This document shows, in pieces, positions 54,996-56,459 of a stretch of DNA of 64,000 nt (its first letter is position 1; every line of letters starts with the position of its first letter). Source of the stretch: a virus; IMG/VR virus record IMGVR_UViG_3300035510_000237; one strand, given 5' to 3'. Made by a program: the position numbers and the translations under genes. The notes under the pieces were generated by a model that was not told the DNA's origin, searched no databases, and saw nothing but the letters and a program-made list of their open reading frames with translations.

Positions 54996-56099
54996 ATGAA
55001 ATATACTTCAAGCAATCCACCTACCCAATGTATGATGACTAACAGTACCTGCTATAAGGGCACAAGTACAATGACGATTAAAGGTGTCCTTTGGCACTGC
55101 ACTGGCGCAAACAATCCAAATTTAAAAAGATATGTTTAGCCTAGCACTTCAGATGCTAACTATGCTAGTTTAATGACCCTTTTGGGCAAAAATACCAATA
55201 ATAATGATTGGAACCATATTACTTATCAAGCTGGTTTAAATGCTTGGATTGGTAAGACAGCAAGTGGTGCAGTCACGACAGTTCAAACAATGCCTTGGAA
55301 TTATCGCCCTTGGGGCTGCGGTTCCGGCAGTAAAGGTAGCTGTAATTCTGGCTGGATCCAGTTTGAGATTTGCGAAGACGCTCTGACAGATGCAACTTAC
55401 TTTAATGCTGCTTATACAGAGGCTTGCGAATTAACTGCTTATTTATGTAAAACTTACAATTTAAATCCAAAAGGTTCAGTTAGTTATTAGGGAGTATCTG
55501 TCCCTGTTATTCTTTGCCATAAGGATAGTTATAAATTAGGCTTAGGCACTGACCATAGCGATGTTTATAACTGGTTTAATAAATTTGGTAAAACGATGGA
55601 TGATGTGCGTAATGACGTGGCGGCACTGATGGGTGGTAGCACAACAACTAGCTCTACCACTACTACAACAACTAGCACAGCTACTTCTTCTACAGCTAGT
55701 GCAACTACTGTTAATTATACTGGTACAGTAACTGCCTCTAGTCTGAATTGTCGTAGTGGCGCAGGAACTAATTATTCAATAGTCACATCATATGCAAAAG
55801 GAACAAAAGTCTCAATTACAAAAGAATTAAATGGATGGGGATATACAGGAAAAGGTTGGGTTTCTCTCGATTATATTACAAAAACCACAACTACAACTTC
55901 TTCTAGCTCTTCCACAAGCTACAAAGTCAAAGTCACTGCGTCCAATTTAAATATTCGTAAAGGACCTGGCACCTCTTATGCCACCAATGGCGCTATTACA
56001 GATAAGGGGACTTATACTATTGTGGCAACTTCTGATAATTGGGGCAAGTTAAAATCTGGCAAAGGCTGGATTTGTTTAGATTATACAGAGAAGGTGTAA
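54996..56099 (+). CDS. endolysin: N-acetylmuramoyl-L-alanine amidase (Amidase_2-like) + two SH3b cell-wall-binding domains (2 in-frame TAG)
   Basis: RBS TAGGAGGAATTTAAATG; ..GVLWHCTGANNP..; two YKVKVTASNLNIRKGPGTSY...GWICLDY SH3b repeats; track ORFs 55173 and 55596 are TAG-separated pieces of one frame. Confidence 0.6.
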
Positions 56100-56102
56100 T
56101 AA

Positions 56103-56459
56103 ATGCCAACATAGGCTCAGCAAGCGGTTAGAAATCAAAAGCCATAGAAACCGCCTTAGAAAAGAAAACCGCGCAAAAAAGAAAAGAAAGAATTTTCTAA
56201 GACATTATTGATCCAAGAGTCTATCTTAATTTGGATTATGACTCTTAGCTTTATTCGATTGGCGTATATATGTGTAGCAAATTAGTATTTTGGCGAATTA
56301 CCTTGGCTCTCAGCCATGGTAGCTTTACCTTGGACTGCTTATGGAGTCAGCTAGGCATTCTATTATAATAAAGCTAAAAACGAAAATACTAAGGATGGTA
56401 TTACCTACGAAACGGTTATGGCAGAATTAAATTCTCCTAATCCGGATGCTATGGGATAA
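56103..56459 (+). CDS. putative holin (6 in-frame TAG)
   Basis: immediately 3' of endolysin; basic N-terminus, two TM helices (SILIWIMTLSFIRLAYICVA, LPWLSAMVALPWTAYGV). Confidence 0.45.

Follow-up and report, generated by a model that had tools for sequence, protein, structure and literature searches.

A 64,000-nucleotide (nt) stretch of viral DNA, IMG/VR record IMGVR_UViG_3300035510_000237 (hereafter the window), carries at positions 54,996 to 56,459 two adjacent genes, for a predicted amidase endolysin and for a small membrane protein that we call ORF118, both of which contain in-frame TAG codons. This locus raises the question of whether the pair is a lysis cassette that can be expressed only by amber suppression, and whether, as an earlier note on this DNA proposed, its recoding serves to delay lysis. 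We consider it probable that the two genes are the lysis cassette of a large Bacillota phage that partly uses genetic code 15, with ORF118 as the likely holin and with expression gated by recoding in the manner described by Borges et al. (bioRxiv 10.1101/2021.08.26.457843). The window is the whole stretch that was analysed, and about two thirds of the genome, whose size was estimated from relatives at ~180-205 kilobases (kb), lie outside it. The elements of the cassette, and the suppressor tRNA on which its reading depends, are the following (aa, amino acids; bp, base pairs; ORF, open reading frame).

54940..54969, + strand: terminator-like hairpin (12 bp stem and T-run) that ends the upstream PhoH gene; 5' boundary of the cassette
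54983..54988, + strand: Shine-Dalgarno sequence AGGAGG, read from the sequence, 7 nt 5' of the endolysin ATG
54996..56099, + strand: endolysin gene, 367 aa; ATG at 54996, TAA at 56097-56099 and a second TAA at 56100-56102
56087..56096, + strand: Shine-Dalgarno-like sequence AGAGAAGGTG, within the 3' end of the endolysin gene and 6 nt 5' of the ORF118 ATG
56103..56459, + strand: ORF118, putative class-II-type holin; 118 sense codons, TAA stop at 56457-56459
56466..56504, + strand: intrinsic-terminator-like hairpin (12 bp stem at 56466-56494) with T-run, 7 nt past the ORF118 stop; 3' boundary of the cassette
25272..25346, + strand: amber-suppressor tRNA with anticodon CUA (ARAGORN; Rfam tRNA, 61.4 bits)

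The junction of the endolysin gene and ORF118 is tight (TAA TAA ATG), and terminator-like hairpins on either side delimit a compact unit of two genes.

Reading of the TAG codons

If TAG is taken as sense, the endolysin gene is one long frame of 367 sense codons plus a stop, in agreement with the earlier note, and has TAG in frame at codon 48 (55137-55139) and codon 165 (55488-55490). The standard code cuts the same frame into ORFs at 54996-55139, 55173-55490 and 55596-56099. The chance of finding 367 codons free of TAA and TGA at the composition of the window is ~1e-9. The length previously given for the downstream ORF was also borne out (118 sense codons followed by TAA), whereas the six TAG codons attributed to it have to be corrected to five, at codons 4, 15, 19, 61 and 84 (nt 56112, 56145, 56157, 56283 and 56352); the remaining four TAG trinucleotides of this region are out of frame. 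At a guanine-plus-cytosine (GC) content of 36%, 118 codons without TAA or TGA have a chance of ~0.0013. The ORF118 core has 31 unique homologues at the DNA level, in which we found no in-frame TAA or TGA, and mismatches to the window at the first, second and third codon positions were 0.28, 0.21 and 0.52, respectively. This excess of third-position mismatches, together with the open frame in the homologues, indicates that ORF118 is a real protein under purifying selection.

Four independent kinds of evidence indicate that glutamine is the meaning of these TAG codons. Homology runs across the TAG codons of the endolysin, of six homing endonucleases, of PhoH and of a metallophosphoesterase encoded in the window. 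The alignment column at endolysin codon 48 contained Gln in 52 and TAG in 4 of the 56 homologues, and ORF118 codons 61 and 84 fell in invariant Gln columns among 42 family members, with CAA, CAG or TAG at these codons in the DNA homologues of the same subfamily. In all, three TAG codons of the window lie on conserved Gln columns of homologues, and the column at endolysin codon 165 varies too much to be informative. On the + strand, 53 non-overlapping ORFs reach 100 aa or more in the standard code; 42 of them stop at TAA, 9 at TGA and 2 at TAG, and both TAG-ending ORFs were internal fragments (one of the endolysin and one of a GIY-YIG homing endonuclease), leaving no independent TAG terminator. 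As the homology across TAG codons, the Gln columns, the lack of TAG terminators and the encoded tRNA(CUA) all agree, we conclude that TAG is read as Gln (genetic code 15) and that the phage is partly recoded. This code is known from crAss-like and other phages of the gut, and proteomics has addressed such TAG-to-Gln translation in crAss-like phages (PMC9523058).

The tRNA(CUA) gene predicts a canonical cloverleaf with a U1-U72 mismatch, G73 and an encoded CCA end, and stands ~30 kb 5' of the cassette as one of 14 clustered tRNA genes. It presumably decodes every TAG codon as Gln; the label "Pyl" given to it by ARAGORN comes from the anticodon only, and charging with Gln is suggested because protein alignments place Gln at the TAG columns. 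The anticodon arm had no match in an exact search of IMG/VR.

A ROOL RNA lies 166 nt downstream of the tRNA(CUA) gene within the tRNA cluster (25512..26099, + strand; Rfam RF03087, 320 bits, model positions 1-574 of 574). ROOL RNAs are known near phage tRNAs (PMC5737381, PMC12286853); the position of this one next to a code-changing tRNA is perhaps noteworthy.

Were the TAG codons true stops, the endolysin gene would be a decayed pseudogene and ORF118 would be non-coding, as the standard-code ORF map, taken by itself, could be read. This explanation is extremely improbable, and we rejected it, as Pfam and PHROG alignments cross the TAG codons, TAG falls on conserved Gln columns, neither frame contains an in-frame TAA or TGA, homologues show the marks of purifying selection, a suppressor tRNA is encoded, and TAG never serves as an independent terminator. 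The cassette and its TAG codons are, moreover, stable: we found it with all seven TAGs in six independent sequencing runs, with 0-15 substitutions per 1,464 nt and the TAG codons untouched. Samples with this phage include SRR11793975 and sibling runs.

The endolysin and ORF118 as a candidate holin

The endolysin matched Pfam Amidase_2 (PF01510) with 47.4 bits (cut-off 26) over residues 26-176, a span that includes both TAG codons, and SH3_3 and SH3_4 with 50.3 bits (cut-off 27) and 33.4 bits (cut-off 24.1), respectively. Its best PHROG matches were lysis families, the top one being amidase (2.8e-53). The amidase domain is followed by Thr/Ser-rich linkers and two SH3b wall-binding domains; these repeats are similar to PDB 8b2g and 2kq8, and the amidase is weakly similar to PlyL (PDB 1yb0, E=0.0026). 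With PlyL, which comes from the Bacillus anthracis prophage LambdaBa02, the endolysin shares an N-terminal PF01510 domain, a C-terminal wall-binding module and the lack of a signal peptide, whereas it differs from solved amidases in the weakness of the similarity, in its two SH3b repeats with long Thr/Ser linkers and in two Gln residues written as TAG. The first 40 residues are hydrophilic, a hydropathy scan found no transmembrane (TM) segments, and the enzyme has no signal peptide; it therefore would need an export partner, that is, a holin.

ORF118 has features expected of such a partner. Hydropathy analysis placed two TM segments at residues ~35-58 and 64-82, and an AlphaFold2 model showed a helical hairpin of residues 31-60 and 66-94 with a predicted local distance difference test (pLDDT) score of 74-88, so that both methods agree with the two TM segments originally proposed for this ORF. 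Residues 1-30 form a basic, K/R-rich, disordered N-terminus, a five-residue turn (QYFGE) joins the two helices, and a charged C-terminal tail with a K-rich segment follows TM2. By the positive-inside rule, the predicted topology is N-in/C-in. The conserved core of the protein reads EFSKxLLIQESxLIW...LAFxC..NQYFGELPW...PWTAYGVSQAFYY.KA..EN.

Class II holins, such as S21 of phage 21, have two TM domains and an N-in/C-in topology. ORF118 agrees with this class in being small (<150 aa), in its two TM helices joined by a short turn on the periplasmic side, in its basic N-terminus and charged, hydrophilic C-terminus, and in its endolysin neighbour. It differs in having no sequence or fold likeness to any catalogued holin family, in the position of its gene 3' rather than 5' of the endolysin gene, in the lack of a dual-start motif, and in the unusual length (30 residues) of the basic N-terminal tail.

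Relatives of ORF118 were found at 26 IMG/VR viral loci (54-77% identity), and a profile search retrieved more than 4,160 metagenomic proteins, all of them unnamed ("hypothetical") and free of Pfam domains. In 37 fetched loci, the homologue lies directly 3' of an Amidase_2 endolysin gene, in many cases separated from it by -8 to +14 nt. In other loci, the gene directly 5' of the homologue encodes a different hydrolase: Phage_lysozyme2 with ELLD, ELLD alone, Phage_lysozyme2 with Peptidase_M15_3, a PG_binding_1 and SH3 protein, or other Amidase_2 enzymes. The endolysins that ORF118 homologues adjoin are thus of no fewer than four or five types, and the adjacency outlasts the swapping of endolysins, as is expected of a holin. 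Because of this synteny with diverse endolysins and of the missing signal sequence of the endolysin, we consider it very probable that ORF118 is the holin that releases the endolysin.

What doubt we retain comes mainly from two relatives in which an extra small ORF lies upstream of the ORF118 homologue. These ORFs (L003, 5248..5529; L020, 4791..5078) encode multi-TM proteins of 93-95 aa without a Pfam match, which may be a second holin component; at the L020 locus, a TAG-rich GIY-YIG endonuclease gene stands between the multi-TM ORF and the ORF118 homologue. Given these two loci, ORF118 could itself act as an additional holin or in a regulatory capacity. A wider form of this alternative makes ORF118 an antiholin or regulator, a second holin subunit or an otherwise-anchored membrane protein, with the true holin elsewhere. 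It draws on the same two loci, on a basic N-terminus that is unusually long for a holin, on the fact that ORF118 had no significant match in Pfam, NCBIfam, PHROG-lysis, PDB sequences or BFVD folds, and on other small, TAG-free two-TM ORFs in the window (1198-1551, 38259-38603 and 38707-39096). These three ORFs, however, match no PHROG family at E <= 0.01, whereas, in the window as at the majority of related loci, ORF118 is the sole small membrane protein beside the endolysin gene, its association holds across unrelated catalytic types of endolysin, and its size, two TM segments, positive-inside N-in/C-in topology and charged C-terminus fit class II holins. A role other than holin is thus unlikely in our view. 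The holin label of the earlier note rests on size, topology and kept position beside diverse endolysins; no known holin family matched ORF118.

Suppression and the timing of lysis

That full-length endolysin and ORF118 would require amber suppression is a sound inference from their reading frames. Without suppression, termination by release factor 1 in a standard-code host would end the endolysin after 47 or 164 residues and ORF118 after 3, and both endolysin TAG codons precede the rest of the Amidase_2 match as well as both SH3b domains. The earlier note had described both lysis genes as depending entirely on the suppressor tRNA. Their dependence follows from the TAG codons; the word "entirely" is weakened by a second wall hydrolase in the window:

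35236..36342, + strand: secreted NlpC/P60 hydrolase, TAG-free, 368 aa, with an N-terminal signal- or lipoprotein-like sequence, SH3_3 and a C-terminal NlpC/P60 domain

This was the only hydrolase candidate for a TAG-free lysis system in the window. No adjacent holin-like gene was recognised, the TAG-free two-TM ORFs listed above had no match to a lysis PHROG, and the hydrolase is not conserved, with two distant matches to its catalytic domain among the IMG/VR relatives. It more probably serves as an accessory enzyme that remodels the wall than as another lysis system. The earlier note had counted a TAG-free lysis system elsewhere in the genome as evidence against its proposal; this gene touches on that point in being a TAG-free hydrolase, but stops short of a lysis system in its lack of conservation and of a holin partner.

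Under the gated-lysis reading, a cytoplasmic Amidase_2 endolysin would be released by ORF118 acting as a holin. We infer that the yield of full-length protein would scale roughly as the suppression efficiency raised to the number of TAG codons (two in the endolysin, five in ORF118), and that the lysis proteins would consequently appear steeply and late, only once suppression is strong. The cassette, which lies among genes of early type (PhoH, RNase H, GyrB/GyrA), would stay translationally silent early in infection, and read-through transcription from these neighbouring early genes would be harmless. That recoding delays lysis is, for this cassette, the hypothesis published by Borges et al., in whose model recoding delays or gates lysis (bioRxiv 10.1101/2021.08.26.457843). 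Two features expected under that model were found here, namely enrichment of the recoded codon in lysis genes and replication genes compatible with the standard code.

The distribution of TAG codons in the window bears on this hypothesis. Its 65 + strand genes contain 48 TAG codons and 418 CAA or CAG codons. TAG use is bimodal among these genes: 14 of the 65 (22%) use it, and the other 51 write all of their 337 Gln codons without it (P ~1e-16 if TAG were used evenly across genes). In the lysis pair, 7 of the 15 Gln codons are TAG (7 versus 8 CAA/CAG), compared with 41 versus 410 elsewhere (p=2.7e-4), and no gene of the window writes a greater part of its Gln codons as TAG than ORF118 (5/9), which is tied with one small ORF. 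GyrB, GyrA, RNase H, an exonuclease, an RNA ligase and the genes of an NAD pathway contain no TAG. Among the TAG-using genes are six homing endonucleases:

20321..21055, 26897..27517, 28127..29026, 34134..34844, 49812..50747 and 57327..58085, + strand: free-standing homing endonucleases (HNH, HNH, HNH-like and three GIY-YIG)

These six hold 29 of the 48 TAG codons (60%), which make up 30-50% of their Gln codons; no group I introns were detected around them. Synonymous codon choice also separates the two sets of genes, with CAA:CAG ratios of 60:21 in TAG-using and 111:226 in TAG-free genes (odds ratio 5.8, p=3e-11). TAG-using genes are lower in GC, the six homing endonucleases having values of 0.26-0.31, and the lysis genes, at 0.37-0.39, are typical for the window. 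The genome therefore has two classes of codon usage, which fit either an origin of TAG from CAG or distinct expression classes. The nucleotide following TAG (+4) had no clear context bias. Single genes at the extremes include a TAG-free gene at 30809..33223 with one CAA and 39 CAG codons, and a small ORF just past tRNA-Cys (27772..28005, + strand) with five in-frame TAG codons and no PHROG match.

We then compared the cassette with its relatives. TAG was present in both genes of 13 related two-gene cassettes, in neither gene of 6 and in only one gene of 2; those of the TAG-free cassettes that we inspected resemble standard-code phages. ORF118 homologues outside this phage contained no TAG (12 homologues), one (9), two (4) or three (5), making the five of the window the maximum, and endolysin homologues contained 0-7, with none in 42 of the 55 unique close homologues. 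Recoding of the cassette is thus frequent in recoded relatives, and single TAG codons are evolutionarily labile.

Several observations weigh against the gated-lysis reading. The homing endonucleases do not differ from the lysis pair in TAG share (Fisher p=0.78), and enrichment extends to PhoH, the phosphoesterase and small ORFs, so that it is not specific to lysis. The positions of TAG vary among ORF118 and endolysin homologues, and this lability of number and position fits drift as well as selection. A TAG-free hydrolase is present, as described above. A sigma-70 promoter scan, which performed at chance level in the window (19 found versus 19.7 expected), gave no promoter candidate in the stretch from the PhoH terminator to the start of the endolysin gene. 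Neither a release factor nor an aminoacyl-tRNA synthetase (glutaminyl-tRNA synthetase) was found among the annotated genes or the larger unannotated ORFs of the window, and the code-change module that stands beside the lysis genes in Jade-type phages is absent from the vicinity of the cassette, with tRNA(CUA) 30 kb off.

The main rival to the lysis-timer reading is neutral drift, in which TAG, arising from CAG by C-to-T change or from CAA, gathers in any AT-rich gene whose expression begins only after the suppressor tRNA has become active and is purged by selection from early genes, so that it would mark late expression without causing a delay. The differing CAA:CAG ratios and lower GC of TAG-using genes speak for drift, as do the labile positions of TAG in the homologues (0-3 in ORF118, 0-7 in the endolysin) and the equal recoding of unrelated genes (homing endonucleases, PhoH, phosphoesterase). 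It accounts less readily for the joint top TAG share of ORF118 in the window and its top count in the family, for the three ORF118 TAGs within the first 19 codons, which would abolish any product, and for the report of Borges et al. that lysis families are significantly biased to the recoded codon in two other phage clades. We regard drift as the sole cause as a serious possibility, although not the one we favour; drift and regulatory use are mutually compatible. A different account makes the TAG-rich lysis cassette and the homing endonucleases mobile modules that came from more heavily recoded phages and kept the codon usage of their donors. Consistent with such an origin, selfish mobile genes (the six homing endonucleases) carry 60% of the TAG codons, endolysin modules have been shuffled 5' of a conserved ORF118 in relatives, and hairpins bound the cassette. 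The gene order PhoH, endolysin, ORF118, ORF of ~70 aa, RNase H, GyrB is, however, kept in relatives, the ORF118 TAGs replace CAA or CAG Gln codons of close relatives, which argues for change in place, and the GC of the lysis genes is that of the window. Import of the cassette is accordingly improbable. Gating of the cassette by suppression, with ORF118 as its holin, thus remains our favoured reading. A broader proposal, which we offer tentatively and think rather doubtful, is that ORF118 represents a very large, unannotated holin family of gut Bacillota phages, both standard-code and recoded, and that the five TAG codons of this copy would act as a steep, fifth-power "lysis clock" atop the holin threshold, insulating a cassette that lies among early genes.

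Genome context and related phages

The order PhoH, endolysin, ORF118, an ORF of 71 aa, RNase H, (homing endonuclease), GyrB and GyrA was kept in relatives. The cassette sits among genes of replication and metabolism, of which RNase H, GyrB and GyrA are TAG-free, and outside any structural block; we found no structural genes within the window. A search of GenBank phage DNA with the cassette and its flanks gave only short matches to PhoH, in Bacillus and Alicyclobacillus phages, and no annotated close relative. The motif TTTTATATA occurs on the + strand at 54969, 20288, 34167 and 35172, that is, 20-65 nt 5' of the endolysin, two homing endonucleases and the NlpC/P60 gene. With nine occurrences in the window versus 4.2 expected, its excess is marginal (2 of 100 shuffles reached nine), and it may, as a weak lead, be a phage promoter element.

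The PhoH gene itself (53669..54934, + strand) encodes a protein with an N-terminal PIN domain, and both of its TAG codons (codons 4 and 65) are confined to the PIN part. An internal ATG at 53903 opens a standard-code ORF of 343 aa, making it conceivable that a short PhoH is produced before the code change and the full PIN-PhoH after it.

Other contents of the window include, at 29108..34129 (+ strand), genes for a DUF2828/DUF7788 protein (with a weak, sub-threshold VWA_2 match), for an 804-aa protein with a major-vault-protein shoulder domain and for an RlaP-like nucleotidyltransferase, and, at 40591..41796 (+ strand), a gene for an RNA ligase. All of these are TAG-free, and together they make up a combination that is unusual in a phage and recalls vault or RNA-repair systems. 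Also TAG-free are genes at 42425..47276 and 51350..52780 (+ strand) for a phosphoribosyltransferase-like protein, NAMPT and NAD synthase (NAD salvage and synthesis) and a flotillin/SPFH membrane protein. The region ~3700..10150 has few convincing + strand ORFs and no matches in Rfam, and the TAG-containing minus-strand ORFs that greedy calling placed there are probably spurious.

Host signals point to Bacillota: an endolysin of a Gram-positive type, and contigs of metagenome-assembled genomes of Bacilli, Clostridia, Agathobacter and Oscillospiraceae. Together, the genome size estimated above, these host signals and the 22% of genes with TAG resemble the Jade- and Sapphire-type clades. These clades are among those described by Borges et al. 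(bioRxiv 10.1101/2021.08.26.457843), who reported suppressor tRNAs in crAss-like, Agate, Jade and Sapphire phages of standard-code hosts, and preferential recoding of the amidase, a transmembrane lysis protein and a homing endonuclease. The phage studied here shares with theirs a standard-code host, a suppressor tRNA, recoding in a minority of genes (22% here versus 26% in Sapphire), replication-type genes in standard code, an amidase and a TM lysis protein rich in the recoded codon, and the recoding of homing endonucleases. In contrast to theirs, its cassette lies (in the 64 kb seen) among TAG-free replication and metabolism genes, has neither release factor nor synthetase beside it and a tRNA(CUA) 30 kb away, and includes a TM protein from another, unannotated family. 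A second comparison is offered by phAss-1 and its relatives, TAG-recoded phages of Clostridia with a genome of 136 kb, in which ~28% of ORFs contain TAG; their holin ORF has suppressor TAGs in some members only, and recoding varies among orthologues (PMC10607447). Here, too, we found TAG recoding, predicted Bacillota hosts, a recoded (putative) holin and variable recoding; genome size and architecture differ.

Recoded lysis cassettes have thus been described before, and the cassette in this window is a further example. What is modestly new is the very large, unannotated family to which ORF118 belongs and the extreme recoding of this copy, and naming the family would improve the calling of lysis genes in gut phage genomes. 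With two genes, seven TAG codons, one suppressor tRNA and an endolysin of Gram-positive type, the cassette is a compact and tractable test case for the hypothesis that recoding regulates lysis. The homing endonucleases of the window are recoded as heavily as its lysis genes, and this matters for the question of whether recoding serves lysis specifically or marks, in general, genes that are late or dispensable.

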